The notes beneath the pieces are model-generated. The model saw only the letters and a program-made list of their open reading frames with translations. It had not been told where the DNA came from and made no database searches. 52,624 nucleotides of DNA. Source: a virus. Its lineage: Duplodnaviria > Caudoviricetes. Where the stretch lies: positions 1 to 52,624 of the IMG/VR virus record IMGVR_UViG_3300045738_000739. The stretch is one strand, 5' to 3'. Of this stretch, positions 1 through 52,488 are shown piece after piece (the first letter of the stretch is position 1; every line of letters starts with the position of its first letter). A program made the translations under genes and the position numbers.

Positions 1-122
1 CGAAGACGCTCAAGAATCGGCGACAATTCAGGTGGGCAACACGACGCATTGAGAATCATGTTGCAGGTCACCCGCCGCGCGTGCGCGTTTGCGGGTAGGT
101 TGTTGATCGTTGCTAGTGCCAT
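1..122 (-). CDS. hypothetical protein, N-terminal part (runs off window)
   Basis: ATG at 122 preceded by GGAG RBS; open to the window edge (MALATINNLPANAHARRVTCNMILNASCCPPELSPILERL...). Confidence 0.5.
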   Translation of the reverse strand, partial: MALATINNLPANAHARRVTCNMILNASCCPPELSPILERL

Positions 123-178
123 TGTTTTAACTCCGTTTGCTTGGTTGCTTGGTCGGTCAATTGTCGTCGCTAACTGTG

Positions 179-391
179 CTAGTCAGCGTGCCCCGCGAAA
201 GCGCGAAGCCTCTCGGTTTCGAGACAGGCAGGGCAAAGATCCACTGACTCGTGGATCGTGCGCCGGTCGCTCGCCTTCAGACGACGACGAGCCATGCGCG
301 TGGCCCGCTTCTTGGGAGCCTCCTGGCAGCACGAGCAAACGTGCCCGTGCCCACGAAACCCTTTAATCCGCTTCTTGTGTGCGTCCATCAC
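179..391 (-). CDS. small basic Cys-rich protein (CSCC ... CPAC)
   Basis: 70-aa ORF, AGGAG RBS, abuts the upstream ORF; Arg/Lys-rich with Cys pairs. Confidence 0.6.
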   Translation of the reverse strand: MMDAHKKRIKGFRGHGHVCSCCQEAPKKRATRMARRRLKASDRRTIHESVDLCPACLETERLRAFAGHAD

Positions 392-617
392 GATCTCCTT
401 CTTGTGCCCGTAGTTGCTGACGTGACAGCTCGTAGTTTTCGCTGCACATCCAACACGAGCAAGGACGGCAACCTGTAGACGCCCACCTGCCTACACGCGC
501 TGGAGTATCACTCAGCGGGTGTACTACCCAGGATGGCGCGTTCAAGATGCCCAATACCTTGCGCGCGTTACGTTTTGCTCGTTGCTCTTTTGCGAGCCTG
601 TATCCTCGATCTCTCAT
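363..617 (-). CDS. small basic protein with CRPCSCWMC motif
   Basis: 84-aa ORF starting 2 nt after the stop of the upstream gene; CSCWMC motif typical of small phage proteins. Confidence 0.65.
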   Translation of the reverse strand: MRDRGYRLAKEQRAKRNARKVLGILNAPSWVVHPLSDTPARVGRWASTGCRPCSCWMCSENYELSRQQLRAQEGDRDGRTQEAD

Positions 618-618
618 T

Positions 619-1464
619 CTAACCTTTCTTCTGCTTCGGCTTAGGCTTCGCCTTCTTGTTCAAGTTGAAGAACCTGATCAGCGTCATGCGATGCCCTTGT
701 TGCCACTGCCCCGCGTTTCGCGTTCGCCGACCATCGTCGGCGAGCGCATGGCCCATGAGCGAGCGAAACATGTTGCTCGCAGTCGGCCACTCGTCACCCA
801 CTTTCACGTCAGTCCTATTTCCCTTGAATTGGAGCAGTTTGTACCCGCCGCCGGCTACGCACTCGATCTGGTAGAAACATTTCCCCCAGCCTCTTCCGCG
901 ATGGGTTTTGTGAACAGACAAGATGCGACCCTCGGCCCAGCCGGCTACCTGCGTCGGATGTTTGCAGCCTGCACCGACTCGGCGCATCTTGCCCTTTTTG
1001 GTAGCCTTTCTGGTGGCGACAATTGACACCTTGTCGTCTTCTTCGGAAGTCAACTCGGGGTCGATCCCGTCGCCGGTCAAGTCACCCGTCAGCTCGATGC
1101 CAGCCGTCAACTCCTCTTGATCTCCTTCTTCCACCAGCTCTGGCTCGGGCTTCGGTGGCTCAGCAACCGAGATTGTCTCTTTGTCGATCCGCACCAGATC
1201 CATAAACCACGTCAGCCAGTCAACGTCGTCTTCGGATACTGCGACGGTATCGGATTTGACGATGTTGATCGCCTTCGGACGCGCGCACTCCTCCAAGTCT
1301 TCTGCGATGGAACCGCTGCCGTTCTGGAACGACACCTCGTCGTCGGTGCCGTCTTCAAACGACAGCTTGAAACCGCAGATCACGGGATAGCCAGCGTCGT
1401 CAATCAGCTCCTCGCCGCTTTCAGCGCGGCGAGTGAGCAACGTGAACTCAGTCAAAACTCTCAT
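619..1464 (-). CDS. hypothetical protein, acidic N-half and basic C-terminal domain (possibly DUF2924/RAMA-like)
   Basis: long ORF; GGAGG RBS before ATG 1464 (track start 1476); C-terminus GDEWPTASNMFRSLMG...RFFNL. Confidence 0.7.
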   Translation of the reverse strand: MRVLTEFTLLTRRAESGEELIDDAGYPVICGFKLSFEDGTDDEVSFQNGSGSIAEDLEECARPKAINIVKSDTVAVSEDDVDWLTWFMDLVRIDKETISVAEPPKPEPELVEEGDQEELTAGIELTGDLTGDGIDPELTSEEDDKVSIVATRKATKKGKMRRVGAGCKHPTQVAGWAEGRILSVHKTHRGRGWGKCFYQIECVAGGGYKLLQFKGNRTDVKVGDEWPTASNMFRSLMGHALADDGRRTRNAGQWQQGHRMTLIRFFNLNKKAKPKPKQKKG

Positions 1465-1465
1465 A

Positions 1466-1705
1466 TCAGCCTCCATGCTTTTGCTCTGGGTATTGCAGCT
1501 CTTGGGAGTCTTCCCACGAAACCGCGAGCTTTTCGTTGTCCCACCGCACGCAGTAAATCACTGTGCATGGTGGAGCACCTACAGACGCCTGCACCAGAAT
1601 GTCCCCGGCACCTTTGTCCTTGTGTTCACAGGCACCCAACGCTTCCATCGTCGCCGCCTGCTCTGGGATCCCCAGACCCCAATTGTCCTTCTGTTTCTTG
1701 GCCAT
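1466..1705 (-). CDS. hypothetical protein
   Basis: GAGGAGG RBS 6 nt before ATG 1705 (MAKKQKDNWG...); stop lies next to the start of the next gene. Confidence 0.65.
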   Translation of the reverse strand: MAKKQKDNWGLGIPEQAATMEALGACEHKDKGAGDILVQASVGAPPCTVIYCVRWDNEKLAVSWEDSQELQYPEQKHGG

Positions 1706-1976
1706 GATTTTCCTCCTCTTGCTTGGCTTCGTAGCGAGTCTTGAGACTCGCGAATCTTTCCCGACCTGCTTCGGTCTTTGACCACTTCGTGCAGCCGCCA
1801 ACACATAAATCAGTGCCGACTCCCCCCCTCACATACGCCTTCGCCAGCTCTTGTTTGATCTCTCCTCCCAGGAGAGTTGAGTTTAGAAATCATATAGGTC
1901 TCAAACATTTGAGACACCTGGCGAACTTCTCACCGGGAAACTGACTTGCGTTGAACTGATTAGTGAACGGGTTCAT
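1626..1976 (-). pseudogene. ORF interrupted by one in-frame TGA (1892-1890): pseudogene or recoded gene
   Basis: GAGG RBS + ATG 1976; MNPFTNQFNASQFPGEKFARCLKCLRPI*FLNSTLLGGEIKQELAKAYVRGGVGTDLCVGGC... stays open to 1626. Confidence 0.4.
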
Positions 1977-2072
1977 GATCTTCGCCTCTACAGGTCTGTA
2001 TGCGCGAATTGTCGCACTGCTCCTGCACTACTAAAGACGGATACGACCTGGCAGCGAACCGGAACTGCAAGC

Positions 2073-3128
2073 TCAACTTTTATTGATGTATCTCAAACCC
2101 TTTAGATTACTGGACTTCTTGGCAGATTGGAGGGGTTGCACTGCCCCCGAACCGGGGCAGTTAGCCGACAATTCGAGACATGCACTTTTTCCAAGCTCAG
2201 CCGGATCGGTGCCTGACGGACACCGCGCCACGCGCACGGGCAGGAACGACGCGAGCAGCCCCGCTGCCGCCCTTCCGCCTTTGTCCCCGGCATCGTCCCC
2301 GTCGTACATCACGACGACTTCAGACGGACTCAGGGACGACAGGAGGTATGCTTGCGCGAGACTGAGCGAGCTGCCCATCGTCGCCACGAACTGTGGACCG
2401 CACACCACCGCGTCCAGCGGACCCTCGACAAGATAAATTGGCTCACCTGGACGGCACAGATGAAGCCCGACCAGCACCTCATTTCGAGTCGCGCAGCCAG
2501 GCACAATTGTCAGCCCCCACTCGGCGTGTTTGTCGGGTGCCGGTAAATTGATGACTTTGATCTTGCTCGCGCCGGTATCCCGCGCGATCCAATACACGAA
2601 TCTTCGGGTGAGATCCCACACCGGAATGAGTAGCCGCCCGGTCAAAAGCCGGTCAGCTTTTGACCCGCTTCGGTCACCCCGGAGAGACGACAATCCGAAC
2701 AGCCGGCAATTGTCGTCGGAGATCCCACGCTCCCGCGCGTACCGCTCAGCTCGTCCGTCGAGCTGCCAAGTCGTCCCCGGTGGCGCAGCCGCTTCAGGCA
2801 GTAGGCGTTGCATGGCCGCACTCGCCTTCTCACGCTCTAACGGCTCGACGTGGGTGCCAACACCCATCGCTGCCTGCTCGACCACCCTGGCCCCTTCTGC
2901 GGGTCCAGAACCAAGCACCGCTCCGACGAGCACGGCTGGGTGTCGCCCACGAAATCCGCAAACCCAGCACTGGAACGCCATCTTGAGCACATTGACAGCG
3001 AACTTGTCGCGCCCGCATCGCGGACAGTCGCAGATCCATTCGTTGCCGGATTTCGAGTAGCAAGTGATGTGTCGGTCGAGCCATCCCGCAAGATTGAATC
3101 GCCGATCGATAGGCGACAATTGGCTCAT
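2073..3128 (-). CDS. DNA primase (Zn finger + TOPRIM)
   Basis: CPRC...CWVC zinc finger; LVEGPLDAV and YDGDDAG TOPRIM motifs; adjacent to DnaB-like helicase. Confidence 0.92.
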   Translation of the reverse strand: MSQLSPIDRRFNLAGWLDRHITCYSKSGNEWICDCPRCGRDKFAVNVLKMAFQCWVCGFRGRHPAVLVGAVLGSGPAEGARVVEQAAMGVGTHVEPLEREKASAAMQRLLPEAAAPPGTTWQLDGRAERYARERGISDDNCRLFGLSSLRGDRSGSKADRLLTGRLLIPVWDLTRRFVYWIARDTGASKIKVINLPAPDKHAEWGLTIVPGCATRNEVLVGLHLCRPGEPIYLVEGPLDAVVCGPQFVATMGSSLSLAQAYLLSSLSPSEVVVMYDGDDAGDKGGRAAAGLLASFLPVRVARCPSGTDPAELGKSACLELSANCPGSGAVQPLQSAKKSSNLKGLRYINKS

Positions 3129-4483
3129 CGCCCATTAACCGGCGGCGGTGGCGGCGGTGGTTCGCCTTGATACCCTAGATCACTGAACCCGCCGCGCTCG
3201 TAATCTGTCTTCACCCGCACGAGCACGCCATCTTCAGCGTCCCGATACTTGCCGAGATAGACGCGCGCCAGCCTGCTCTGCTGCTCGTCAATCGTCCGGT
3301 TGATCGACAGGATTATGTCGGACACACGAACCTTCTCGTAACAGTCGGCAACGTCGCGCGGGCGCAAGACATGCTCTCTGTTGTCGGCTCCTTTGTCGGG
3401 CCTGACAGCTTGCGTCGGTGAGCACACTGCGTAGCCGCGATGCCCGCGAAACTCGATGCGTTCCGACAGAGCTTTGAGCTGCCGGAAGCTGGTCTTCTGG
3501 CGCATATACTCCGACTCCCCCTCGCTATGCAGAAGGTCACCGTAATCAACGATGATCAAGTCTGGCACCCACCCGTGGTTCAGCCTCAGATCCTTGATCT
3601 CGGATAGCAGATCAGCGTAGCTCGCCTGCCACGCTTCACCGTCGTTGAACCCCCGCGTCACCAGATTCGATCCGAGCACCCGGTATTCGCGCTGCATCGT
3701 CGCCATCATGCTGGAGTCGATGTCGCCGCGCTTGACTCGCGCATACACGGTCTCGGCGAACCGGGCTTCGTAGCGATCTTCAGTCTTGCCCCTGCCACCT
3801 TCCAGCACGAAGTGGAGCACCTTCCGGCGAATACGAGCTGCAACGAATCCACGCTGAACGCACCAAAATGTTTTACCGATGCCGCTGTACGCCATGACGA
3901 CTTCCAGCTCACCGCTCGCGAGCCCGCCGCCCATCGACTTGTCTATCTTGTCGATCCCGCATGGGTTACCAGCTCGATTGTTCTCGTTCGCCATCCGTCT
4001 GAATTGTCGTTCGCCGAACTCGGTAAAGAACCACGAGCGGTCAGCCAGCTCCAACTGGATCGCACCCATCTCTTCGATGCGTGCCATCATTCGGCTCATC
4101 GCTTCGTCCGTGTTCCCGTCGTTCCACGATTGCCGGGCTTCCTCAAACCCTAGATGGAACACTTGTCGCCTCGCCCACTCGACCACCTGATCGCGGACGT
4201 ACTCAGAGTCGCGCCAGTCAACATCGGTTTCAATGATGGAATCCGCGCCGACAATTGCAGGATCGTCAGCCATCAGCCGCAGTCGTTCAGTCTTGAGCTT
4301 CAGCATCGATGGATTGTCGTCTACCGAAACGATCTGCCAGGCCCACAGGCTAGCCGGGTCGGTCCAGCCCAATTGACCCGCCCGCATGAACCGCTCGACA
4401 AGAACACGGAGCCCATGATCGTCCATCATCGCTCTGATCAATTGCCGCTGGAATGCGACTCCAAACTCATCAGCCCCCTGCAT
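3125..4483 (-). CDS. replicative DNA helicase, DnaB/T4 gp41-like
   Basis: Walker A AYSGIGKT, VLHFVLE, LIIVDYGDLL Walker B, SPTQ, K-Y-R motif. Confidence 0.92.
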   Translation of the reverse strand: MQGADEFGVAFQRQLIRAMMDDHGLRVLVERFMRAGQLGWTDPASLWAWQIVSVDDNPSMLKLKTERLRLMADDPAIVGADSIIETDVDWRDSEYVRDQVVEWARRQVFHLGFEEARQSWNDGNTDEAMSRMMARIEEMGAIQLELADRSWFFTEFGERQFRRMANENNRAGNPCGIDKIDKSMGGGLASGELEVVMAYSGIGKTFWCVQRGFVAARIRRKVLHFVLEGGRGKTEDRYEARFAETVYARVKRGDIDSSMMATMQREYRVLGSNLVTRGFNDGEAWQASYADLLSEIKDLRLNHGWVPDLIIVDYGDLLHSEGESEYMRQKTSFRQLKALSERIEFRGHRGYAVCSPTQAVRPDKGADNREHVLRPRDVADCYEKVRVSDIILSINRTIDEQQSRLARVYLGKYRDAEDGVLVRVKTDYERGGFSDLGYQGEPPPPPPPVNGR

Positions 4484-4994
4484 GCCTGACCTTCCTGATC
4501 TGCAACGGTAGAGCAGTTTTGCAGTCTACTGCCAGCGCACATGCTCGGCACCATACACTCTGCGGATGCCAGCCCAGCGTGATGTCGTGGGACGCTAGGC
4601 AAACTTCGGGAGTCGCCGCAAATTCAGCCTTCGCTGACTCGGACAAAACCGTGAGTGTGATGTCGCGATCCGTGTCCTCGACCACAGCATCCGACAGCTT
4701 TTCATCGAGCTGCGTGCTCGCCTGTTTGCCATCGCCGAACTCACGGAACTTCGCAAGGAACCCCGGCTGCACTTGGTACAGTCGAGCAAGCGGCACTCGG
4801 AAGCGCCAACCCGTCGCATCGTGACGCGAACGGATGAAACGATCAGGGTCGATGCTGTTGGAGCCGCAGAATTTGAGAAAGCCTTCGCACTGTGCAAGTG
4901 CATTCGTTGTGACTTTGCGAGGAAAGACGCGCAGCCCGTCGCAGAAGCGTGCGGTCAGTCGGTTATACAGACGAAGGCATTCTCTTGCGTTCAT
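4470..4994 (-). CDS. hypothetical replication-module protein, C-terminal Cys/His cluster
   Basis: ATGA overlap with upstream stop at 4991-4994; WHPQSVWCRACALAVDC. Confidence 0.65.
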   Translation of the reverse strand: MNARECLRLYNRLTARFCDGLRVFPRKVTTNALAQCEGFLKFCGSNSIDPDRFIRSRHDATGWRFRVPLARLYQVQPGFLAKFREFGDGKQASTQLDEKLSDAVVEDTDRDITLTVLSESAKAEFAATPEVCLASHDITLGWHPQSVWCRACALAVDCKTALPLQIRKVRHAGG

Positions 4995-5458
4995 TCCTCG
5001 CGCATGCCCGCAACAAATTTCTGTGCATCGAGACATCCGCTTGTCGCGTTCTCGCCGCCGACCACAATGTCGTAGTCGAGCCATTCCGGCACAGCTTCGA
5101 TGCCGTCGCTCTTGCACTGCTCTTCGTACTGAGCGAACACCTCTTGAAGACGCGCCGCAAGCGGACCCGCGCAGCCGCGCAGCAATTGATCGACCCGCAG
5201 CATAAACCAGCGATGCCCCTTCTCCTGATAAAACGACAGCAGCCCCTCGCTCGTGAGCACTGGGATGCCTTGGGAGTCAGGCGACTTCCACAGCACAGCC
5301 GTGCCTTCGGGATTGATGACAGGCGCGATCTCAGGACCACGCCAGCCAAGCTCGTACAGCTTGGTCAGGATGTTCGCCACGTCGTCAGCGTCGTGCTCCA
5401 CCGTCAAAAAGCTCCAGCCAGATTTACCGATTCGTTTGTTCCAACCATTGGGTTGCAT
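4991..5458 (-). CDS. hypothetical protein
   Basis: AGGAGG RBS before ATG 5458 (MQPNGWNK...); translationally coupled to the next gene. Confidence 0.65.
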   Translation of the reverse strand: MQPNGWNKRIGKSGWSFLTVEHDADDVANILTKLYELGWRGPEIAPVINPEGTAVLWKSPDSQGIPVLTSEGLLSFYQEKGHRWFMLRVDQLLRGCAGPLAARLQEVFAQYEEQCKSDGIEAVPEWLDYDIVVGGENATSGCLDAQKFVAGMREE

Positions 5459-5507
5459 ATTATTCTGTCCTCCTGTTCTCCTGTATGGGTCTACCCGCAC
5501 AAGAATC

Positions 5508-7052
5508 CTATTGTCGTCCAAGCCACTGCTTGAAGCTCGGCACATCCAGAACGCTCGACTCGAAACAATCCTCTTCGCGGTAAAGCATCATGCGATGAAC
5601 ACTGTGCTCAAGAAGTTTCGGATGATGCAAATCAACCACGTCCACGATGATCCCAGTTCGCTTGCCACGGCTCTCGGTCAAGACTCGAAAATAGTCTTGC
5701 TTGACCTTCACTCTCGACTTCCCCCCTGCCGCATACACCAGGGCATCTGCGGCAGGCACGTCCCGACCCTCGCCGATTACGGATGTGCCTACCACGGCTG
5801 GGACCACGCCAGACGACAATTGCCGAAGCCGCTCATCGACCACTTCGTTGTCGCGACCATCGACTTCGACTGCGCCTGGAATCATCCCGGCAAGCACTTC
5901 CGCATGCCCGATCTGCTTCGTCAGCACGAGCACCCGACAACCTGCTTCGATCAAAGTAGTGGCGGCAGACGCCAGGATCGCGTTGCGCTCTCCGTTCTCC
6001 ACGACTCCGATCCGATAGCTCGTCTTATTGTCGGCTATCGTTGAGCCGGGACAACGGAGCATCGCGATCCGCGCCGGCACCAGTCTTCCAAGCTCGACCA
6101 TCTCCGAAACCGAACGACTAAACGCCGACCGGCCCAACACGCCGGCCATCTCCATGTCGCGACCGTCTGCCCGATAATGCGTGCCCGTCAGACCTAGCCG
6201 CCAATACGCGCCCGTGAGCTTTTCACTGACCGCCTGCCAAGTCGCGGCAGCCGCATGGTGAAACTCGTCAAGGACGAGTAGCTGCCGCGCGTGAAGATTC
6301 GGCAGTGTGATCGCTGTTTGGGGTGTGGCCACCCAAACGAGCGCATTAAGCAATTGTCGCCTTTCTTTCGCGTTGGGTTTCCCGCGCTGGCCGAACACAC
6401 TTCGATCAGGAAAGAACTCGCGAAACGCTGCAACTGTTTGAGTGACGAGACCGACCGCTGGCGTGACGTAAAGCGTGGGCACGCCTAGCTGGGCGACAAT
6501 TGCCATCGCGATGCGCGTTTTACCGGAACGCGGTGGAAGATCGATAACGCCACGACCCGCTTGAACGAATGCCTCAACCGCTTCGCGCTGGTAAGCGTAG
6601 AGGTCGGGGGTTGGCAGTGGAGTGCCACAAGGTGGATCTCCACGATTGTCGTCTAATGCGAAAGGGGTCTCACACCGAATCCGCAACTGCCTTCTGACCA
6701 AGGCGAGCAAGCCAGTCGGAAATGAGCCGTCGCCCTTTACCATCCTCACCCACCCGTCCCAGATCCCACGCTGCCGCAGTACACGCTCCAGCATCGCAGG
6801 CGTGAGCACGGATTGAGCCAGATCAGCATCCGTGAGAGCTTGAGACACCGTGCTGTCGGCCCAGAGCCGTCGCAGGTCGGTCACCGACCCGTAGCGGCGA
6901 CTTCGGCTGAAAAAGGCTTTGATGGTCCGCTGCGCGTCGAGCGTCGGCATCACCTGTTCCTGGTAGGCAACTCCGTGACGCACGATGCGCAGATGGTCAG
7001 TCGAAATATCTTCGATCTTCGACCACACGTTCCCGACGACAATTCGCGTCAT
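5508..7052 (-). CDS. superfamily 2 DNA helicase (UvsW/XPB-like)
   Basis: LYAYQREAV Q-motif, PPRSGKT, VLDEFHH, LGLTGT, VIGEGRDVP. Confidence 0.93.
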   Translation of the reverse strand: MTRIVVGNVWSKIEDISTDHLRIVRHGVAYQEQVMPTLDAQRTIKAFFSRSRRYGSVTDLRRLWADSTVSQALTDADLAQSVLTPAMLERVLRQRGIWDGWVRMVKGDGSFPTGLLALVRRQLRIRCETPFALDDNRGDPPCGTPLPTPDLYAYQREAVEAFVQAGRGVIDLPPRSGKTRIAMAIVAQLGVPTLYVTPAVGLVTQTVAAFREFFPDRSVFGQRGKPNAKERRQLLNALVWVATPQTAITLPNLHARQLLVLDEFHHAAAATWQAVSEKLTGAYWRLGLTGTHYRADGRDMEMAGVLGRSAFSRSVSEMVELGRLVPARIAMLRCPGSTIADNKTSYRIGVVENGERNAILASAATTLIEAGCRVLVLTKQIGHAEVLAGMIPGAVEVDGRDNEVVDERLRQLSSGVVPAVVGTSVIGEGRDVPAADALVYAAGGKSRVKVKQDYFRVLTESRGKRTGIIVDVVDLHHPKLLEHSVHRMMLYREEDCFESSVLDVPSFKQWLGRQ

Positions 7053-7408
7053 AGGATCGTGTAGAGGTTAACTTTGCGAGCCGATGAAAAGAATCGCTTC
7101 GACCGCTCGATGAATGCAGCCGACTCCAGCGTAGCCAGCGCACGGAACACCGTGGCTCGACTGAACCCGGTGATCCTGCACAGCGTCTTGACTTTGGGGT
7201 AGCACTTGCCCGTGTATCGCCCGGCGAACAGGCACAGGCTAACGTAGACGCAACGCTGCGCTGGCGTCAGTCGGCGGTAACGGTTGCTGTCAACGTCCGA
7301 CATGCGGACGACCCCGAACGAGTCTTTCCGCTTGTCCTCGACAGCAAATTCGTCTGTGGACGTGGCAGCCATACACACGAGTATGTGTGTGGCGTGGCCA
7401 CCATCCAC
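7049..7408 (-). CDS. winged helix-turn-helix DNA-binding protein (HTH_36 / replication-initiator N-terminal type)
   Basis: VYVSLCLFA..CYPKVKTLCRITGFSRATVFRALATLESAAFIER...NLYTIL; start codon uncertain. Confidence 0.85.
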   Translation of the reverse strand: MDGGHATHILVCMAATSTDEFAVEDKRKDSFGVVRMSDVDSNRYRRLTPAQRCVYVSLCLFAGRYTGKCYPKVKTLCRITGFSRATVFRALATLESAAFIERSKRFFSSARKVNLYTIL

Positions 7409-7423
7409 GTCCGTGTCACGAGG

Positions 7424-7654
7424 CTATTCCTCTTCTTCTTCCTCTTCCTCTTCTTCCTCGACTCCGTTGTCACGCAGCCCAAGAGGACGATAGGTGTCGA
7501 GCCCAGCCGTCGCCAGCAAGAGACCTTCGATGGTCATCAATGTCTCCATGGAAATACTGAGCCCGTAGTGCTCACTAACTTCCCGCAACACTGCGATGCC
7601 GATGCCGATGACCAAAAGCCACAGCCTTGTCGATTGTTTTCTATTCTGCTCCAT
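7424..7654 (-). CDS. small membrane protein, holin-like, with poly-Glu tail
   Basis: GGAGG RBS before ATG 7654; STRLWLLVIGIGIAVL plus a second hydrophobic stretch; lies at the end of the tail module. Confidence 0.55.
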   Translation of the reverse strand: MEQNRKQSTRLWLLVIGIGIAVLREVSEHYGLSISMETLMTIEGLLLATAGLDTYRPLGLRDNGVEEEEEEEEEEE

Positions 7655-39821: not shown

Positions 39822-39823
39822 CG

Positions 39824-44400: not shown

Positions 44401-47400
44401 GACCCGTGCAGCCCGCTGCCCCAGCAAAGCCTTCTGGGCACTGCCAGAGGACCGCCTGATGCGCTCGTTGATCTCGTCCAGCCAGTTGATCCCGTGACCG
44501 CGAAAACGCACACCCAGCTCACCCGCGTCGGGGTTCTCGATCTTCTTGCCTAGTGGCGCATCCCAGCCAGCATCGACCATGCGCTTCAAAGCTACCTTCG
44601 TCTGTGCTGCCGTGGGCTTGCCTGTGCCCTTGTAACCCGGCATCCCGGTGCCGATCCACTTGCCCGCAAGCTCAGCATACGGCTGCCCCAGAACTTCCTG
44701 GCAGTACAGATCATAGACGGCAGCCTGCTCAGGTCCGATCTCCTCGATGCGCTTAAACTTCCCTTTCGCAGTGCCTCTGGACTTGTCCATCAGTTCCGAA
44801 GGTCGGAACGTGGTGAAGTCAACCCGTGAGTTTGATTCACCACCCGACTTGTTAAAAGTGACCGTCGTCACCCTAATAAACTTCTCGGGATTGCCCGCTT
44901 TATATCCAATACAATTGGTGATCGCCTTGGCTGCCTTCGTCAGCTTACGTGTCTCCTCGTCACTGATGCGGTCGATCTCTTCCGGGTCAAGTCCAGCTCC
45001 ACCCGTATCCGAACCTAGTGACGCCATATACAGGTTGAACAGCGTTTCCTGGATGCCCTTCATCTCTGCGAACTTGCTCTCCTCTGTACGGACACCGGGG
45101 AGAACCTTGCCTCGCACATCCTTCGGTAAAGCTATGTCCATCCACTTCGCGAGAATGGCCGCAAGCTCACCCATCTTTTCCGCCTTAACCGACAGCTTTG
45201 CACCCTTTCCAGATTCGCCAAGCTGCCCAGGAACGGGCGTCTCCTCCAAATACTCGTCAATGAATTTCTTGCTGGTCATGTCGGGCCATTCTTTGCCCTT
45301 CGACAATAACCGCACATACTCAACGAAGTCGGTCGGTGATGTCGTCATCGGAGTGCCGGTCAACAACATCAGCATCTTCATGTCGTCATTCCACTCACGC
45401 ACTACACGATTTCTCTCAGCCGTTTCATTCTTGATGCCCATGTGAACCTCGTCCACGATCAGCCCATCGAATCCACACTGCTTGAGTTTGGCCGCATGCT
45501 TCGTAAAATACTCAGGACCGACGACAACCAGATCGCCGCGCGAACTATCTTTCATCGCAAGAAATTCATCTGCTGAAATATCGCCTGACCCGCGACCGAC
45601 CACTTGCGCTCCCTCATCGAAATCGGCACATGCTTTACGCCACTGCTCAACGGTGTTGAGCGGAGCGACAACCAGCACACGCTTCGGATTACCCGGATTG
45701 CGCCGCGTATTGTCGAAAGGATTATTCTCGTACCAATCTTTGATGTCCTCCGCTGTCATCTTGGCTTTCTCAGCCGATGAGAGCTTCGCGCGAGCAGGAC
45801 GTTCCATCATCATTTTCGCGGCGACAATTGCGGAGACAGTCTTGCCCGTGCCCATATAATGAGCAGCAAGAACTCGACCATCGTTGTCTATCATTTTCTG
45901 AAGCAGCTTTTGCTGATGGCCGCCCAACGTGAACTCTTCGCCCGATGGCAAACGCTTGTTGAGCCCTGCGCCCCAATTGTCGGCGAGATTTGCGGGATCG
46001 ATCTCAGCCAACGACATCTCGTGCGCGTCAGCCGACATCGACTTCTCAGCATCCACAAGATGATCAATGCGCTGCTTCAGATAAGTGTCCACCTCGCCAG
46101 TCAACGAAAGCCCACCAAGCATCTTCCGCAACTCGGGGAAGCGGTCAGCTGGAACCTCGACCGCAGTGATCTCACCCCTCAAACCTGGAACTAGCTCTGG
46201 GCCTTGATCGGCAGCAACCGCTCCTTGGATGGCGAGGATGGAATCGGCGGACACACGTCCGTTCTTCGGTAGCTTGACCCGCAAACTCTTGTGCATCGTC
46301 GCGCCCGTTCTCGGATCGACATCGTGGTGCATGTAGACCAGCACCTCATTTTCGAGAGCTTCTGGCGTGTGTGAGCCCTTTGGCCAGCTCGTTGAAGAAC
46401 GAACTGCGTCCTCACCGTAGCGAATAAAAGTACGACCCGGCGTGCCGCCGCCGACTTCGCCTTTGAAGAGGTAAGCAGTCGGATACGCTTTCGCCTTCTC
46501 CGATTTGTACGTCGATCGGTACGCCGCCATCGCGGGGACGAAGTGGGCATTGAACCACTCTCGATACACGTCGCCGCCATTGTACCACTCGGGAAGAAGA
46601 CCCTGTTTGATGTAGCCCTTCTCAGCCTTGGTGAGCTTCTGCCCATCGGGAACCGGGTGCGACGGCGTCAAGTTTGGGATGTAGTTCCCAGCCAAATCCT
46701 TGGGCATGCGATCCCAACCAGGCTTTGGCGGCGCTTCACCGGCTTTCTTACCCATGATGATCCGCTCAAGACGAGCGACAACCGTCTTGTCCTCAATGAC
46801 CGGATCTGTTTTAGCAGTGGCGTCGATCAGAACACGCGAACCCTTTGTAGGCAGCGCACCCTTTGGCGGCTTTGCAGGCGGGTTGAGTGTGATCTGCTGC
46901 GCACCGATGACAGCGCGTGCGCCTTCACGAAAAGCGAAGATCGGATCGTCCTTCAGCAAGTCGTCGATGCGCGGCTCATCTTTGCCAAGACGACTCGCCC
47001 ATTCCTTGCCCATGATCTTGGGCTGGCCGGAACCATCGTACTCGACCTGCATGTGGTAGACGTGTTCGCAGTCGCCCTTCTTCCCCATCTTCCATTTGCC
47101 GTTAGCCTTCTGAATGCGCTCACGGTCAGTGCGAACAGAGATCCAAGTAGTGCGCTTTTCAGCAGCCGCCTTCTTGCAGAAACGACGCAAATCGTCGGCA
47201 GAGTTGATCGACTCACCATACGGAGTAAGCAACGCTGACCACATTGGATCGGAGACTCGGAAGCCTGTCCCCCTGGGATCGCGATGGCAGTCAATTGTCG
47301 TCGTCGTTCCATCCGGGTTGTCATTCACAAAACGCTTGGAATCGAAAATGGGCTCGACCTTGCCGGTCACATGGTTGACAGCCGTCACCACATCAGCACG

Positions 47401-49629
47401 GGTGAAATGTCCCTTGGCGTTACGCGCCATTTTGATCTTGATTCCAGGCTGCTTTTTGCGCAGCTTGGTCAGCGCAAGACGCTTCTGCTCGTCTGTCTGC
47501 GCGCGTTGCCACGCGCGCATCTCGGACTCGCCCGCCGTGTCCCAACGGTCGTAAGAGAACGTGCCAGACCTCTGACGGAACTCGCGACAGGTAAGCTCGT
47601 GCGGGCGCATAAGCGCAGGCTTTGGCGGTTTGCCGTTAGCGTCGTTGTAAGCCGCCTCCATCTTAGCCAGCTCATCGGCAGTCGCCTTACGTTCTGGCTT
47701 CTTGAGCGTCCACGCTTTGCCGCTCTTGATCGCAACAACACCCTTCTCAAGTGCTTTTTCGAGTAAGGCTTGACCGGCAGTAGTCGTATCGCGCAGAAGG
47801 AATTTTGGACCCATCTTGTCCACCAAGGCTTGGACCTTGGCTGCCTTGGCTGCGGACACTTTAGAACCCGACTTCTTACTCTTGAGACCTGTCGGGAGAT
47901 CGAGAATGTCTTGCAGCGTAACGTCGAGCTTTTTGCCTTTGACAGTAACCTGCGCAATCTTCGCTTTGGGGTCGTCGAACTGGTCCTGCATCAGATGCCA
48001 GTAGATCAAATCCCGATCAAGAGGCTGACGGTTTTCGTCAAATACCTCTTTGATGTCCTCTGCCCTGATCACTGCGTTATTGGACGACTGACTCGGATCA
48101 GACGGATCCCAGTTAGGCTTTCCCATGTCCCCATCAACCGACTGTTTGCCATAACGGAAATAAATCGTCCTACCCCGATAAGACATCTCGAAGAATCGAT
48201 CATGCAGCCGCTTCGTCTGACGACCGATTTTGTCTTCGTCAGGCGGATCCGCGACGTACTGAGTCTCGCTAGTCTGCGGGGGACGCGGAACAGCCTGGAT
48301 CAGCTTGGCCACTGGCTTGACTTCTTTTCCGGCGAACCAGGCCAACCTCTCATCCTCGAAATCCATCTCGTCCAACCCGTCCAACTTGTCGAGTCTCTTT
48401 TGGACGGCAGCCTTGTCGGCTGGGCTCCGCGCTGTATCAAGCTCAGCCTTTAGCTTCTCGATCCCAACCTTGTCGGTCGTGAGCGGAAACATCTCATCGG
48501 CACCGATGAATTGTCGCATCCACTCATACGTCTTCGGGCAGCTCACGGACATCTGCTTCGGGTACAGGATCGAACAGGAAAAGCTCTCAGCGAACCGCTC
48601 CTTCATGTGGACATCACGACCCTTTTGAGTGATCTCAGCGTAAGCCGTGATTCCCGGCTCTTTGCCCTTACCCACGAGGTTCTTCTCGAAGAACGAAACC
48701 CAGTCCTTCCAAAGAGGCCCGTCATAATCCGGCCCCATATCGTTCGGACCTCGCGCACCCATCTTGTTGTGGATCGCGTGCGCCATCTCATGGACCAGAA
48801 TATCTACAGAAGATGTGCCCGCATCGAACTGAGGAAGATGCTCCCCTCTCGGAGCGATCCTAGAACCACCCCAGGCGGGCTGTTTTACCCCTTTCCCCGG
48901 CGTCTTCCCCGACCAAGATCCGTCTGCGCCAGTCAGGTCGAGTCCCAATACGATCTTTGAACCCTGAGTCCCCCAGCCTCCAGCCATGCAATAAGCCGAA
49001 GCAGAACCACGACGGAGATAAGCGTCTTCGTCCTTGGTCGTCACCAGAAGCTCGGAAATAGAGCCGGAAAAATGCTTGCGTATATTCGACGGGATCTGCC
49101 GGAACCCTAAGTCGAGAATCCTGAGAGCGTGGATCTTCTGCCCGTACAATTCGTCGGGCTCACCTCCCAAGTCCGCATAATGTTCCTCGACCGCATCCTT
49201 GAAAACCGACTGCGCTACAGGCGACAATACAATCTCGGGCGGCTTGTCCCACGCTAGAAACTCGGTGACCAGATCCACGGTCAAATCTTTTAACTCGGTA
49301 CGCGCCGCACGCAGCTCCGGGTGATCGCCCTTAAACTCGGAGCGCAGACCACCCTCATGCTCTTCGACAGGAGCCTGCGGGGCTTTGCCTTGCAGCTTCT
49401 TAACCTGCTTCTTCTTGCGCTTGATCTTGCGCGCCTGCGACTCCAAGAACTGCTTCCGACCCTCTTCGTTGTCGTAGTAGTATTTCCACCGGAGCTTGCC
49501 CTGCGACATCGTGCGGACTCGACGCCAGTATTTGTGCCCTGCTTGCGCGCCTCGTGCGAAGCCAACGCCCGCTTTCTCAAGCTCGTCGGGTGTGTACGTG
49601 GGATGATCCAAATTAAGCCCGAACTTCAT
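41446..49629 (-). CDS. giant polyvalent protein: zincin metallopeptidase + SNF2-family ATPase (DarB-like architecture)
   Basis: GGAGG + ATG 49629; HEMAH...ERFAESF...CPKTYEW; HYMGTGKT, IVDEVH, LLTGTP, SDAAQVGMNL, EDQRTTRCAR. Confidence 0.88.
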   Translation of the reverse strand: MKFGLNLDHPTYTPDELEKAGVGFARGAQAGHKYWRRVRTMSQGKLRWKYYYDNEEGRKQFLESQARKIKRKKKQVKKLQGKAPQAPVEEHEGGLRSEFKGDHPELRAARTELKDLTVDLVTEFLAWDKPPEIVLSPVAQSVFKDAVEEHYADLGGEPDELYGQKIHALRILDLGFRQIPSNIRKHFSGSISELLVTTKDEDAYLRRGSASAYCMAGGWGTQGSKIVLGLDLTGADGSWSGKTPGKGVKQPAWGGSRIAPRGEHLPQFDAGTSSVDILVHEMAHAIHNKMGARGPNDMGPDYDGPLWKDWVSFFEKNLVGKGKEPGITAYAEITQKGRDVHMKERFAESFSCSILYPKQMSVSCPKTYEWMRQFIGADEMFPLTTDKVGIEKLKAELDTARSPADKAAVQKRLDKLDGLDEMDFEDERLAWFAGKEVKPVAKLIQAVPRPPQTSETQYVADPPDEDKIGRQTKRLHDRFFEMSYRGRTIYFRYGKQSVDGDMGKPNWDPSDPSQSSNNAVIRAEDIKEVFDENRQPLDRDLIYWHLMQDQFDDPKAKIAQVTVKGKKLDVTLQDILDLPTGLKSKKSGSKVSAAKAAKVQALVDKMGPKFLLRDTTTAGQALLEKALEKGVVAIKSGKAWTLKKPERKATADELAKMEAAYNDANGKPPKPALMRPHELTCREFRQRSGTFSYDRWDTAGESEMRAWQRAQTDEQKRLALTKLRKKQPGIKIKMARNAKGHFTRADVVTAVNHVTGKVEPIFDSKRFVNDNPDGTTTTIDCHRDPRGTGFRVSDPMWSALLTPYGESINSADDLRRFCKKAAAEKRTTWISVRTDRERIQKANGKWKMGKKGDCEHVYHMQVEYDGSGQPKIMGKEWASRLGKDEPRIDDLLKDDPIFAFREGARAVIGAQQITLNPPAKPPKGALPTKGSRVLIDATAKTDPVIEDKTVVARLERIIMGKKAGEAPPKPGWDRMPKDLAGNYIPNLTPSHPVPDGQKLTKAEKGYIKQGLLPEWYNGGDVYREWFNAHFVPAMAAYRSTYKSEKAKAYPTAYLFKGEVGGGTPGRTFIRYGEDAVRSSTSWPKGSHTPEALENEVLVYMHHDVDPRTGATMHKSLRVKLPKNGRVSADSILAIQGAVAADQGPELVPGLRGEITAVEVPADRFPELRKMLGGLSLTGEVDTYLKQRIDHLVDAEKSMSADAHEMSLAEIDPANLADNWGAGLNKRLPSGEEFTLGGHQQKLLQKMIDNDGRVLAAHYMGTGKTVSAIVAAKMMMERPARAKLSSAEKAKMTAEDIKDWYENNPFDNTRRNPGNPKRVLVVAPLNTVEQWRKACADFDEGAQVVGRGSGDISADEFLAMKDSSRGDLVVVGPEYFTKHAAKLKQCGFDGLIVDEVHMGIKNETAERNRVVREWNDDMKMLMLLTGTPMTTSPTDFVEYVRLLSKGKEWPDMTSKKFIDEYLEETPVPGQLGESGKGAKLSVKAEKMGELAAILAKWMDIALPKDVRGKVLPGVRTEESKFAEMKGIQETLFNLYMASLGSDTGGAGLDPEEIDRISDEETRKLTKAAKAITNCIGYKAGNPEKFIRVTTVTFNKSGGESNSRVDFTTFRPSELMDKSRGTAKGKFKRIEEIGPEQAAVYDLYCQEVLGQPYAELAGKWIGTGMPGYKGTGKPTAAQTKVALKRMVDAGWDAPLGKKIENPDAGELGVRFRGHGINWLDEINERIRRSSGSAQKALLGQRAARVDEIDRALHFQRALRTELQLEPPDGDWEEGLQNVCNRLGISLEEGRALLQIHPSPTIIEQSWSADHSGDPVQLTTDDNWISDPKGSQHVVFMPKDWDEKNHRPKDLSKEGFAAVRSGALVQLSASAMKAAGIVPPGVPRGLQPEEREAAKEARKNWVPPQFRYDPDIAAPVGQAGVRVLGTGEVLIVKEKDVSALVKSIFDPGMRAERNKFDIACTHQNAKADELEDHVTRFYSQGGKAGPDGARQLVMFGNSILDSCRTMEAKMRQMGFRDVNEVLEGSPHYDPEDKTTKNGSPNDKYFVTYIGATYTGDRELNVAIFQKVKDALQRDSEVSLFVHKCTEPRPASTWKDAKGVFGDKGKEYESNWMLYPGDRKPPDDVALSQWTAEQRSQIFAQFKIEAPESFVLVSKGDGTTEKRAFNGTKRSAAILSRIAKIGDPNKMADDDQKGAKRELQSLKEEYTALAKQGATDTPVLSSKQTTVFNNCEVIVCSDAAQVGMNLGNATEMLKYDTLASPMAEDQRTTRCARMLPAAVKGKLLGRAIMSQKKNHKGESVWETDDQNQPKLDENGKKIPFMVQEYDDKGRPKYDGSGPFSKIRNMEAAIFEAGPRDRPVGHIGKLTLNGPIAGREGEQLKSMQFEGALSLIRTRCLEVSEDYRTRLCPGAPPSSESRSQIRRLAAEWTLLANKCATAATLGANTQYQLLNELNKRKIPGGTGTVISIPQGEMVDLAEKIESGTYASLARGGPMHCVNAESAVRDALDGKAVTVGDTIYQLSEAERKAVMDAGFVQHDPATGTGSHDAAAVYLAIRADEIFTWMEDKRDEVEQAMKAGPMGGIVSNDDVQNRLIDMLTPEDRAVLKTKKYLVNVRVLGTSGNVGQVHVHHPKKVDGEKPDPQRVFTGYEKEHPVATERRTRAMGRSRKISFEQIIRNVQEGTDFSVAGHFEQVDSLSLSKASSTVITKAIRLVFDFARKLMKGDDDATQQTV

Positions 49630-49970
49630 GCCACGCCTCCTCGCCCAGTTGGGCAAACGCGCGTCAACGGAAACTTGCGAATTGCAGCGCCGAAGTGCTT
49701 GGGGTCGTCAGCCGTCACCACACCAGACATCATCACGTCCATGTTTGGGTCGTCACTCTCCCCCGCCCACCGTGTCCACACCGGCTGATCCATGAAGGTC
49801 GCTAGCTCAGCCCAAAACGAACTGTCGGCTACTTTGGCATCGAACTCGACAACACGGAACCCATGGTCAGCGCTCTCGTCGCGCTCCAGCGAACATGCCC
49901 AGCGGAACTGCGGACGATGCGCGCGGTAGTACCTGTGTAGGTGATAAATGTCTTTCTCTGCATCAGCCAT
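49626..49970 (-). CDS. hypothetical protein
   Basis: AAGGAG RBS + ATG 49970; ATGA overlap with the giant gene. Confidence 0.65.
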   Translation of the reverse strand: MADAEKDIYHLHRYYRAHRPQFRWACSLERDESADHGFRVVEFDAKVADSSFWAELATFMDQPVWTRWAGESDDPNMDVMMSGVVTADDPKHFGAAIRKFPLTRVCPTGRGGVA

Positions 49971-52488
49971 TGTCATCTCCTTGTGACGCTGCTTCTTCTT
50001 TGGTGGGCACTCTGCGCGCCGCACCGGAAAGTTCTGCTCGATAGCGCTGCGCTGCTTTGCGGCCCGCCGCCGAAGCCGGATCAGGCATCGGAACCCGACC
50101 TGTAAATTGCTGGAACCGTGCCGGCGACATCACCTTCGACTCGCCGCCAAACGACGGACCTCTCCACGTCGTCGGATCCGATCCGCGTTTCAGCAGGGCT
50201 TGCATGTAGCCCCGCATCACCTCGTCCGCGTACAACCAGCTCGACTCTGGATCTGAGCCGGTCGGAATGGTCTCCACTTCGTCACTGCCAACGGACCTCG
50301 TTCTGCCGTATCGTAGAAATTCTGACAGCCGCTCTCGATCACGTTGCTCGTGATAAAGCTGACGAACCTCACGCTTCTCGGCAGCCGACGCTTTGCCTGA
50401 CTTTTCCCTCTTCAGAATCTTGCCAACGCGATCACCCCGCCCTGCTCTCACACCAGCCGCGTAAATCCTGACCCGCTCGTGTTCGAGCCCTTCAACATGT
50501 CCTGTCAGCACTGCAATCCTAGACGACAATTGATCCTGATTGTCGTCCTTCGCAGTATCACGCTTGGAACGCAATTGTTCAATCTGCTTTTTCGCGCTTG
50601 CAATAGCTTGTTTGTCAGCACCAAATCGAGCAAACAACTCGCGATAGCTGGGACCGGGCGACTCCTCGGTACCGAAGAACTGGCCCGGAGCACCAGCCTC
50701 GATCCACTTCTGCGCATGCAGTCGCGCCTCCGCACCCTTCTCGTGCGCAACACGCTGAAACATCTCGGTCGCCGCGCTGCGTGCCTGGGCTCCCAGACCC
50801 CTCTTGTGCCGCGCCGAATGCCCCTTTTTGGCGATGCCTAGCCGCTCAGCCAGCTCCTCGTTCGACATCACGACGTTGCCGCTCAATTGTCGCCTACCTT
50901 CGCCGGGTTCAGCGTCCGGTGTGAGGCCAAACAGCAACTCGATGGCTCGCGCATTCTGATGGCCGATCTTCCGCTCGTCGCTTCCCGGCTTCCCCACCTG
51001 TTCCATGTCGCTCAGAATGTCATCGATCTCACGACGCAGATGGAGCTGCGTCCCAACTGGAAAATCGGGATCAGTGTGCGGACCCGCCACCTCGTGCGGG
51101 TTTTGATTCATCCACTCAGAGTCGAGCACCCGGTGACCATCGAGCACCCGGTCGAGCGTGCTGATGAGTCGATCCTTGCCCGGCAGTTCCTTGCCCAGCT
51201 CCTTGCCGTCTGGAGCCCTAACCTGCCACCCGTCGAACGGAACTTCTTCAGTCGCCTGATCGACAACCTTGCCTACGTCGTTGTGGTAGACACCAAGTGT
51301 CGCCGCTCGTCCGGTGAAGGTGTCACGCTTCTGGAGTCTCCACGCTCTCGCGATTGCCTTCTTGGTGGGCTCCTCATCGGTCTTGCGACTGGCTCGGTGC
51401 TTGGCCGCGATGTAGCCGTGCATCAGGCGCATCGTCTGGTGCGGCACAGAGGGACCACCGCCGCCCAGCGCAGACCGTGCCGCATACGACGCATAGGTGT
51501 TGACGTAATCTTGGGCGATCATGGCAAACGGCTTGCCGCCTGAATAGCCACGCAAAGCCATCAAGAATCCAAGATTCGCACCGCTCTTGATCTCCTCGAA
51601 GTCGGGCGACTCGTTGCCATCGGAATCACGCATGTCGATTGCGTGGCTCGCGGCAACTTTACGCGATGCAGAGTGCAGCAGCCCTTTGAACTCCTGCAAC
51701 ATCCCGGCTTGGTCAGCCTTCGGAATGAAGATCCCTTGAGACTTCTTCGCGCGCAGCCCGCGCTCGCGATCCACGAAAGTCGCCAACGGATAATGACCGT
51801 TCTCGACCTTGTGCAAGAACGTACCAGCCTTGGCTCTCGAATCCGCGAACACCTTCGACCGCTCGGCTTCTTCGGAGACAGGATGATCTCCAGAACCCTG
51901 CTTTATGGGCTCTGTAATCGCCCTTCCTGGGGGTAGCTTTCCACCGGGTGTGCCGGCCCGTTTCTTCGGCGGTGGACGCCTGGGGGCTGTCCTACGGGGC
52001 TTCACGGGGGCTTTTGGCTTAGCCTTGCCCTTCATCGGCTGGAGTTTTGACGATCTGACCCGGATAGGCTCGCCAGCCGCCCGACCGTGCTCGGGATCGA
52101 ACGTGGTGACATGCGTGTACTTTCCGTCGTCGTCGGCTGCATCCGGTGTCCAAACGAACAGACCATGCCGACCTTGGATGCTGACGAACTGCCCCGCCTT
52201 GATGTCCGAGATCCCGGTCTTGCCGTAGTCGGCTTCCCAGTCGTGATGATCCCCGTGCTTGTGCTCTGTCGGGTACCAGTAGATCCAGCCTCGGCCCTTG
52301 CGCTTGCGGAACCCCCTATGCTTTGAGTTGGGGATCGAGCTGTAGCCGGCTGGTGGTTTGGTCACGCCGGCTTTGCTCAAGCTATTGTCGGCGACAATTG
52401 CTAGGGTCAGCTTCTTCGGTTTCGCCTTTCGAGCAGACAAGGGTGTTGCAAAAGCTGCCTGTATTTCTCGCACATGTGAAGGGTTCAT
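49963..52488 (-). CDS. sigma70-like protein with long N- and C-terminal extensions
   Basis: region 2-like GLLHSASRKV..DFEEIKSGANLGFLMALRGYSGGKPFA; region 3-like EEPTKKAIA; region 4-like RAIELLFGL..MSNEELAERLGI. Confidence 0.7.
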   Translation of the reverse strand: MNPSHVREIQAAFATPLSARKAKPKKLTLAIVADNSLSKAGVTKPPAGYSSIPNSKHRGFRKRKGRGWIYWYPTEHKHGDHHDWEADYGKTGISDIKAGQFVSIQGRHGLFVWTPDAADDDGKYTHVTTFDPEHGRAAGEPIRVRSSKLQPMKGKAKPKAPVKPRRTAPRRPPPKKRAGTPGGKLPPGRAITEPIKQGSGDHPVSEEAERSKVFADSRAKAGTFLHKVENGHYPLATFVDRERGLRAKKSQGIFIPKADQAGMLQEFKGLLHSASRKVAASHAIDMRDSDGNESPDFEEIKSGANLGFLMALRGYSGGKPFAMIAQDYVNTYASYAARSALGGGGPSVPHQTMRLMHGYIAAKHRASRKTDEEPTKKAIARAWRLQKRDTFTGRAATLGVYHNDVGKVVDQATEEVPFDGWQVRAPDGKELGKELPGKDRLISTLDRVLDGHRVLDSEWMNQNPHEVAGPHTDPDFPVGTQLHLRREIDDILSDMEQVGKPGSDERKIGHQNARAIELLFGLTPDAEPGEGRRQLSGNVVMSNEELAERLGIAKKGHSARHKRGLGAQARSAATEMFQRVAHEKGAEARLHAQKWIEAGAPGQFFGTEESPGPSYRELFARFGADKQAIASAKKQIEQLRSKRDTAKDDNQDQLSSRIAVLTGHVEGLEHERVRIYAAGVRAGRGDRVGKILKREKSGKASAAEKREVRQLYHEQRDRERLSEFLRYGRTRSVGSDEVETIPTGSDPESSWLYADEVMRGYMQALLKRGSDPTTWRGPSFGGESKVMSPARFQQFTGRVPMPDPASAAGRKAAQRYRAELSGAARRVPTKEEAASQGDDNG

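Follow-up and report, generated by a model that had tools for sequence, protein, structure and literature searches.

A dispersed octamer kept at high density as a DNA-level word in a clade of marine SPO1-like myoviruses

The window analysed here is the whole of the IMG/VR virus record IMGVR_UViG_3300045738_000739 (52,624 bases, classed as linear), a partial genome, estimated to be 57% complete, of a marine SPO1-like myovirus (Caudoviricetes). Its most frequent octamer, CGACAATT, lies dispersed along both strands well above chance, at a frequency that codon usage does not explain. It is a DNA-level word that selection, or another directed process, maintains at high density in a clade of marine SPO1-like myoviruses. 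Beyond what a first-pass annotation of the window had recognized, sequence comparisons indicate that CGACAATT is one dialect of a clade-wide feature.

Exact searches recover 68 copies of CGACAATT in the window, 33 on the + strand and 35 on the - strand, against 2.19 expected (standard deviation, sd, 1.43; maximum 6) from 100 dinucleotide-preserving shuffles, an excess of about 31-fold; for the 10-mer GVCGACAATT the counts are 58 observed and 0.45 expected, or about 130-fold. The first-pass annotation had listed 68 positions, each of which is reproduced with none missed, and had put the excess at about 70-fold, a figure that falls between these two values; the excess itself stands. Its G+C content of about 59% is corrected to 56.7% by base counts, and its spacing of about 770 bp is close to the measured mean of 782 bp. 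It had also pointed to a lack of strand bias despite genes on one strand and to conserved flanks, and both are confirmed: G stands at position -2 in 58 of 68 copies, T never occurs at position -1 (G 28, A 25, C 15), and G or C follows the word in 62 of 68 (G 41, C 21, A 4, T 2), so that 41 of 68 copies form CAATTG. The full word in the window is thus G-[not T]-CGACAATT-[G/C], with an informative length of about 10–11 positions.

Coding constraints do not account for these counts. Synonymous-codon shuffling within 39 minus-strand open reading frames (ORFs; 94% of the sequence) leaves a mean of 15.4 copies (sd 2.0, maximum 24; n = 300), a figure that includes the 11 non-coding copies, which were held fixed, and shuffling of codon order leaves a mean of 12.5 (n = 300). 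A codon-preserving shuffle had been named beforehand as the refuting test, and it did not yield counts similar to the 68 observed. The 57 coding copies are spread over all six frames, as the first-pass annotation had reported, and the 11 non-coding copies fall within 5.8% of the sequence. Because 68 copies stand against 15.4 after synonymous shuffling, the word is a DNA-level signal kept by selection or another directed process; the analysis supports a signal under selection that is neither a codon nor a peptide artefact.

Relatives were gathered from the viral collection through 57 capsid loci and 38 helicase loci, and 8-mer expectations for whole records were taken from a third-order Markov model (words and counts in Table 1). 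The closest comparison is with G001, which is syntenic with the window across 45 kb and has the dialect CGACAATC, a dialect shared by phages spanning G+C contents of 0.54–0.63 (9 points). The words named as phage dialects beside GVCGACAATT are GACGACAATC and CTGACAATC, the latter being the dialect of G003, and more distant clade members have TTCCGGAA or TTCTGGAA. Of the 38 loci gathered by helicase, at least 16 have a word of this kind; the relatives L097 and L098 carry none, and the complete genome G008 has a weak word only (TTGCTGGA, 50 against 9.2 expected). Dialects track phage relatedness: words of the GACAA family occur at helicase identities of 55% or more, other words at about 47%, and words of a TTC..GAA family at 36% or less. 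Two repeats in capsid relatives are of a different kind. In L099 (45% capsid identity), CTGGAAA with a conserved upstream A..G occurs in 15 copies, 13 of them on one strand, and this repeat is oriented, unlike the balanced words of other lineages. L136 and L138 (about 32% identity) have 15 copies of a longer element with the core TTAGGATT and both flanks conserved, 14 of 15 in one orientation; it resembles a promoter or some other repeated regulatory element and is distinct from the dispersed word.

Comparison of the window with G001 illustrates how completely one dialect can replace another. The base after CGACAAT in the window is T in 68 of 99 cases (A 15, C 12, G 4), whereas in G001 it is C in 97 of 137 (G 20, A 20) and never T. 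Alignments of the proteins from 31 orthologous gene pairs allowed 86 GACAAT sites of the window to be placed on G001; 11 of them match a G001 site exactly, with the same codon phase and orientation, where density alone predicts 0.11. Among these, the window and G001 bases are T and C at six sites, A and C at two and identical at three; orthologous sites have thus switched dialect in place. The remaining 75 of 86 sites have no positional conservation and turnover is high; amino-acid identity at word codons (0.455 and 0.521) lies near the background of 0.498.

The copies are also arranged non-randomly in the window. Successive copies alternate in orientation beyond chance, with 51 orientation runs against 35.0 expected (sd 4.1), a number reached by none of 10,000 permutations in one test and by about 1 in 20,000 in another. 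Same-strand spacing is more even than random (coefficients of variation 0.72 and 0.69; P = 0.03 and 0.015), and same-strand neighbours less than 150 bp apart number 0 on the + strand and 1 on the - strand. The pattern is replicated only partly: CGACAAT in G001 gives 83 runs against 68.9 (P = 0.008). Strand balance holds in all five fifths of the window, G001 and G1022. The three longest word-free stretches of the window, each 3–4 kb, fall in tail genes, in the sheath gene and in the region that encodes the C-terminal part of a giant protein, and the longest gap is within the range of random placement. Across the window, G001 and G002, convergent pairs at ≤25 nt are in excess (13 against 4.56 expected, P = 0.0002), while divergent pairs (3 against 4.54) and same-strand pairs (6 against 9.9) are not. 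Convergent pairs are inverted repeats with arms of 9–14 nt, and those of the window are all intragenic rather than placed between genes as terminators. A preferred distance of 134–155 bp between convergent copies in the window was not seen in G001 and is given no weight.

Searches for other carriers lead back to the same clade. A pair scan for the window dialect across 2.9 million viral contigs returned 82 stretches, with a dense dispersed word only in L070/G002, a clade member that has genes in common with G008, L103, L091 and L095; the next-densest stretch (L041) is a local 18-nt tandem repeat with no dispersed word. Convergent-pair scans for the G001 dialect returned 30 viral stretches; the seven that are clearly dense all belong to the clade, and L404, the eighth to pass the cut-off, is borderline, with 7 copies in 6 kb and mixed flanks. 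The same scan of metagenomes returned 87 stretches, of which five are clearly dense: two are G001 itself and three are contigs with clade replication genes. A few metagenome loci are of intermediate density; L294, the highest of them with 11 copies in 14.7 kb, lacks any clade homolog, and its top word is another one. The metagenome scan revealed no dense cellular contig, with limited power, given that the comparable bacterium G312 has only two convergent pairs at ≤40 nt in 383 kb. Neither the viral nor the metagenome collection yielded a dense carrier from outside the clade.

Cellular genomes were surveyed separately. A capsid-alignment scan of reference genomes found distant relatives (32–43% identity) in metagenome-assembled genomes (MAGs) labelled Myxococcales, Latescibacterota, Lentisphaeria and Bacilli, and none of these (chromosomes in the first two, scaffolds in the last two) carries a word. 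The capsid genes of L170 (CP070713.1, MAG Myxococcales) and L171 (CP070677.1, MAG Latescibacterota) are 42–43% identical to that of the window and lie inside chromosomes of 3.5 and 4.3 Mb; they point to relatives that are integrated or mis-assembled, and give some indication of which hosts the wider group may infect. The host survey covered about 1,440 bacterial genomes of two phyla. Counts of YGACAATY in 401 genomes from the phylum of the Lentisphaeria MAG gave a single outlier, G312, due to a different word, and counts of GVCGACAATY found the phage dialect in 0 of 301 genomes of one order, 0 of 355 of one family and 0 of 381 of the phylum of the Myxococcales MAG. All surveyed genomes had fewer than about 65 copies per Mb, compared to about 1,100 per Mb in the window (58 GVCGACAATT in 52.6 kb), and a modest enrichment like that of the recombination signal Chi would escape such counts. 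The tallies include records flagged as unpublished (G562, G569, G705, G711, G800, G817, G843, G874-876, G891 and G905), and no statement rests on any one of them. The first-pass annotation had proposed a phage system unless the motif should prove to be a host-wide repeat; no such repeat was found in the two phyla and the metagenome scan, which neither establishes nor refutes a phage system.

We tentatively favour an explanation in which a reader passed on within the phage lineage recognizes CGACAATT as its site, because dense carriers are confined to one clade, dialects are graded along the phage tree, and the same dialect persists across the G+C range given above. A sequence-specific DNA-handling protein, passed down with the lineage, would read the word, and its specificity would drift together with its sites (about one per 0.5–0.8 kb) to give rise to dialects. 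The reader may be encoded by the phage and, in the window, would take each strand separately; such reading would suit a process coupled to a helicase, for instance lagging-strand priming or loading, or helicase-nuclease control. It is possible, at a similarly guarded level of confidence, that this amounts to a self-encoded 'genome word' system in which a phage protein reads a 7–10 bp site, one per 0.5–1.5 kb per strand, and co-evolves with it. Co-evolution is suggested because whole genomes are rewritten between dialects (T at 68 of 99 sites versus 0 of 137) and conserved sites have been switched in place.

Several observations weigh against a reader inherited with the phage lineage. Alternation of CGACAATC in G001 is weak (P = 0.11), neither alternation nor regular spacing is seen in G002 or G003, and G1022 has 60 runs against 68.3 expected, with no alternation and random spacing. 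Only two bacterial phyla have been sampled, which leaves room for a host-encoded reader, and cells can own dense words of the same style, as described below. No reader was identified among topoisomerase, winged-helix, SNF2, methyltransferase and HU/IHF candidates. A type IB topoisomerase was rejected: a 1216-aa protein of G002 ends in such a domain, similar to the Deinococcus enzyme 2f4q, and the domain is present as well in G006, a record that lacks a dispersed word, while searches for it in G001, G003, G007 and G008 gave no match. About 18 tandem units of 12 nt containing GCTGCCGAC in G006 (L160) first resembled a dispersed word and are local. The winged-helix protein is conserved in the near clade, and its recognition helix does not vary with dialect among eight sequences, which are too few to exclude it. 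The giant SNF2 protein occurs in the word-less relative L098 as well and is hence not sufficient; the earlier suggestion that the copies are loading sites for an SNF2 translocase is not supported. Another suggestion, that they are modification sites, fares no better: methyltransferases of families PF01555 (N6/N4) and PF00145 (C5), along with HU/IHF proteins (PF00216), occur in none of five relatives' records (G001, G1020, G1022, G1023 and G008, three of them complete word-bearing genomes), a search that did not extend to PF02086 and Dam-type families.

Contrasting three complete word-bearing genomes with G008 yielded eight shared extra genes (a terminase, two giant proteins, one of them with ParB-like and PAPS-reductase-like domains, and five without a family), with no clear candidate among them; the contrast is uninformative, since genes were called only crudely and G008 is not free of a word, if a weak one. 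A T7-type primase site, considered as the word contains GAC, is retained as a sub-option only, the primase of the window being DnaG-like; by our estimate, about one word in five would contain these three bases by coincidence.

Dense words of this style are also found in bacteria. G312, from the phylum that holds the distant capsid relative L172, was represented by contigs C1–C9 and loci L174–L193 and has 625 copies of AAGATCGACA, 116 of them non-coding, in 383 kb (1.63 per kb); the copies use both strands and all six frames. AAGATCGACA is likewise the top 10-mer of seven other family members (G529, G433, G731, G728, G751, G742 and G712; L232–L249), with flank dialects, and a raised CGACAAT count accompanies it in about 20–25 of 151 family members, G711 among them. 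Its core overlaps the phage word at CGACA[A/T], which is partly a consequence of finding G312 by searching for that core. Flanks of AAGATCGACA (A at -2, T at -1) are those that the window word avoids. Close copies in G312 are typically tandem (37 same-strand pairs at ≤40 nt, mostly exactly 15–16 nt apart), in contrast to the convergent pairs of the phages. No viral contig has AAGATCGACA at high density (38 stretches with 2–5 copies each), the clade capsid gene is lacking in the G312 family except for partial weak matches in 2 of 355 genomes, and a literature search for the words, AAGATCGACA included, returned primers only. The bacterial word shows that cells can own such words, and it does not demonstrate that the phage word is a host word.

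Alternative explanations are ranked here by judgement rather than measurement, after the phage-lineage reader, in the order host Chi-like signal, dense host word, molecular drive, and modification or coating. The serious rival, which we consider less likely, is that the word is a host Chi-like signal at which RecBCD/AddAB stops degrading DNA and starts recombination, with each dialect being the Chi of a different host and copies accumulating on both strands because packaged ends are variable. Chi alone is documented as a functional word that can also be the most frequent octamer in the genome of a phage, and a literature search on over-represented phage octamers led to papers on Chi. According to PMC12315714, Chi is the top octamer in phages P1 (50 copies, 1 per 1.9 kb), LLS (23 copies, 1 per 1.86 kb) and Pseudomonas phage MD8 (32 copies), is gained and lost among phage relatives, and accumulates in phages that depend on host RecBCD; according to bioRxiv 10.1101/2020.08.13.249359, it differs by a few bases between host groups. 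The word of the window resembles that of these Chi-rich phages in being the commonest octamer, short, asymmetric, intragenic, gained and lost, and independent of codon usage. The orientation-sensitive, per-strand pattern of the window fits directional reading, clade members with no word or a weak one (L097, L098 and G008) are expected where phages have recombination or inhibitor genes of their own, and host enrichment is modest in known cases, so that host counts could miss it. In contrast to the strongly one-stranded LLS and MD8 (PMC12315714), copies here are balanced by strand and along the genome (33 and 35, in all five fifths), with no predominant orientation toward a nuclease-entry end, which would be tolerable for Chi only if packaged ends were permuted. 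Density is 2–3 times that of Chi-rich phages, informative length reaches about 10–11 positions, relatives have graded dialects, phages 9 G+C points apart share one dialect, and no cell with the word has been found so far among the genomes surveyed, so that the word is matched to no host. Some clade dialects are, moreover, perfect palindromes (TTCCGGAA), and Chi sites are not known to be palindromic.

It is improbable that the phages copy a chromosomal word of their host, akin to uptake sequences or nucleoid-protein sites and dense there at about one copy per kb. Bacteria do own such words, as AAGATCGACA in G312 and seven further genomes attests, with an overlapping core, and convergent close pairs are enriched in the phages, as they are for Neisseria uptake sequences. 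Against this stand the absence of the phage dialect from the three genome sets counted above, the outlier status of G312 being owed to AAGATCGACA itself, along with its avoided flanks, its lack of dense viral carriers, the lack of a clade capsid in its family, and the negative, if low-powered, search for dense cellular contigs in metagenomes. More doubtful still is that the word is a functionless by-product of sequence-biased repair or conversion, a molecular drive of the kind proposed for the highly iterated palindrome HIP1 in cyanobacteria. Occurrence in all frames and on both strands, turnover at 75 of 86 sites, near-background amino-acid identity at word codons and random spacing in G1022 are compatible with it. 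Drive alone would not be expected to produce the alternating orientation and regular same-strand spacing of the window or the excess of convergent pairs, no gene for a repair enzyme or methylase capable of driving the word was seen, and the T/C switch at conserved sites would require that the specificity of the process itself had changed. We give the least credence to a target of a phage DNA modification enzyme or a coating site of an orientation-blind architectural protein. Palindromic cores in dialects (CAATTG in 41 of 68 copies; TCCGGA) and giant virion-type proteins of relatives with ParB-like, PAPS-reductase-like or type IB topoisomerase domains would suit either, whereas modification leaves over-representation unexplained, PF01555, PF00145 and HU/IHF are absent from the five records, and the orientation pattern of the window speaks against an orientation-blind reader.

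Other genome-wide words provide further points of comparison. Uptake sequences (the DNA uptake sequences, DUS, of Neisseria, with dialects, and uptake signal sequences, USS, of Pasteurellaceae) are chromosomal signals of competent bacteria. They resemble the phage word in having about 10 informative bases, about one copy per kb, both orientations, all frames, dialects and inverted close pairs; they differ in that dense carriers here are lytic-type phages of one clade, no cell with the word was found, and close pairs are intragenic and not at terminators. HIP1 (GCGATCGC) is likewise a hyper-abundant short word in all frames, and some clade dialects are palindromes as it is, whereas the window word is asymmetric, its carrier is a phage clade, and no methyltransferase partner was seen (PF01555, PF00145). 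Stoperators of Cluster A mycobacteriophages, of which there are 20–35 copies read by a phage protein and oriented with transcription, share tens of copies of a phage-specific site genome-wide, unlike which the present word is balanced in orientation (33/35) against one-stranded transcription and has a higher density. Vaccinia type IB topoisomerase recognizes CCCTT; for systems of this type, gene and word do not go together consistently here: G002 has both, G006 has the gene and no dispersed word, and in the word-bearing G001 and G003 the gene was not found. The word of the G312 clade is alike in style, density, use of both strands and all frames, flank dialects and core, and unlike in its flanks and its tandem rather than convergent pairs; no phage was found to share it.

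Long ORFs of the window are almost all on the - strand, Pfam matches include a tail sheath, baseplate J protein, tube initiator and SU10-type capsid protein, and no tRNA genes were found in it. Cultured SPO1-like phages of Firmicutes have capsid proteins no more than 36% identical to its own, a megablast of the window against cultured phages found no close relative, and the public sequencing runs that contain it are marine or seawater metagenomes only. Giant multi-domain proteins occur in the head-gene region of clade members (Table 1), and are similar to the 'polyvalent proteins' known from phages and from conjugative elements. Their domains differ, with HExxH and SNF2 in the window, a C-terminal type IB topoisomerase in G002, and ParB-like and PAPS-reductase-like domains in G1020, while a repeated peptide, GGPxIGxRGGKW..., is common to those of G001, G002 and G003. 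In G001, a gene for a CobT-like von Willebrand factor A (VWA) protein adjoins an AAA_5 (MoxR/CobS-like) ATPase gene upstream of the replication module; this pair is absent from the sampled part of the window. G1021, the 96.8 kb record of L365, bears TTCTGGAA and is called a provirus by IMG/VR; the record holds no host flanks.

Table 1. Copies of the word, close pairs, word-free stretches and genes of the window, with words and other features of relatives (observed versus expected counts).
Feature	Record	Coordinates	Strand	Remarks
CGACAATT, 33 copies	window	21..52399	+	exact search; starts 21, 1017, 2166, 3114, 4249, 5814, 6494, 7037, 8077, 10241, 10752, 13185, 15162, 19330, 19743, 20104, 21889, 22529, 22760, 26751, 27108, 28485, 31824, 32154, 33690, 35314, 37203, 39875, 40840, 44035, 45822, 50524, 52392
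CGACAATT, 35 copies (= AATTGTCG on +)	window	159..50892	-	exact search; starts 159, 2007, 2708, 4002, 6352, 7684, 9786, 10990, 12099, 12978, 15153, 17548, 18481, 19898, 22098, 22533, 27462, 28219, 31464, 31965, 32843, 33911, 35264, 35453, 38226, 39611, 39992, 40033, 40372, 40886, 44169, 45975, 47293, 48509, 50885
Convergent pair CGACAATC ... AATTGTCG	window	2688..2715	both	hairpin potential; within primase gene
Divergent back-to-back pair	window	15153..15169	both	non-coding, gap between two genes
Perfect 16-bp palindrome GGCGACAATTGTCGCC	window	22527..22542	both	two overlapping copies
Convergent pair CGACAATA ... AATTGTCG	window	40360..40379	both	
Convergent pair CGACAATT ... GATTGTCG	window	50524..50545	both	
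Longest word-free stretches	window	22760-26751, 28485-31464, 40886-44035		
DnaG-type Toprim primase	window	2073..3128	-	
DnaB-like replicative helicase	window	3125..4483	-	
Superfamily 2 (SF2) helicase (ResIII/DEAD)	window	5508..7052	-	query for collecting relatives
119-aa winged-helix protein	window	7049..7408	-	like DNA-binding domain of phage replication initiators; phrog_270, 4e-11
Major capsid protein, SPO1-like	window	37217..38740	-	clade marker
2736-aa giant protein	window	41446..49656	-	HExxH near N-terminus and SNF2 helicase domain; in head-gene module
Giant multi-domain protein	L152	1449-5099	-	
Giant multi-domain protein	L151	255-2726	-	
Giant multi-domain protein	L410	2849-8785	+	
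CobT-like VWA and AAA_5 gene pair	G001 (L148)	2484-6583		
Tandem 12-nt units	G006 (L160)	29644-29860		
Word CGACAATC	G001, 63.5 kb			97 versus 9.7
Word CGACAATC	G002, 22.9 kb			52 versus 5.1
Word CTGACAAT	G003, 24.4 kb			39 versus 2.0
Palindrome TTCCGGAA	G1020, complete, 110 kb			155 sites, counted 310 over both strands versus 17.5
Word TTCTGGAA	G1022, complete, 109 kb			135 versus 8.6
Word TCCGGAA	G1023, 110 kb			228 versus 26.3
Word GAGACAAW	L344			16 + 13 copies versus 0.2 + 0.1
Word CTGACAA	L094			29 versus 1.8
Word GAGTCCGA	L347			
Word AAGGCCAAG	L348, L371			
Word CTTCSGAAG	L118, L130			

Genome-wide functional words (Chi, uptake sequences, the FtsK orienting polar sequences KOPS, and HIP1) are few, and almost all come from cells. 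The clade described here offers many natural replicates, with stepwise change of a word along a phylogeny and near-complete genomes with and without it, so that what maintains such words becomes directly testable. If the provirus call for G1021 is true, host flanks would show whether the word continues into host DNA. If the reader belongs to the host, the word would predict which signal uncultured marine bacteria use for recombination or uptake and provide a phage–host link from sequence alone. If the reader is encoded by the phage, the word would represent a new kind of viral DNA self-marking, a phage analogue of Chi or uptake systems that would tag the DNA of the phage as self, to be replicated, recombined or protected.

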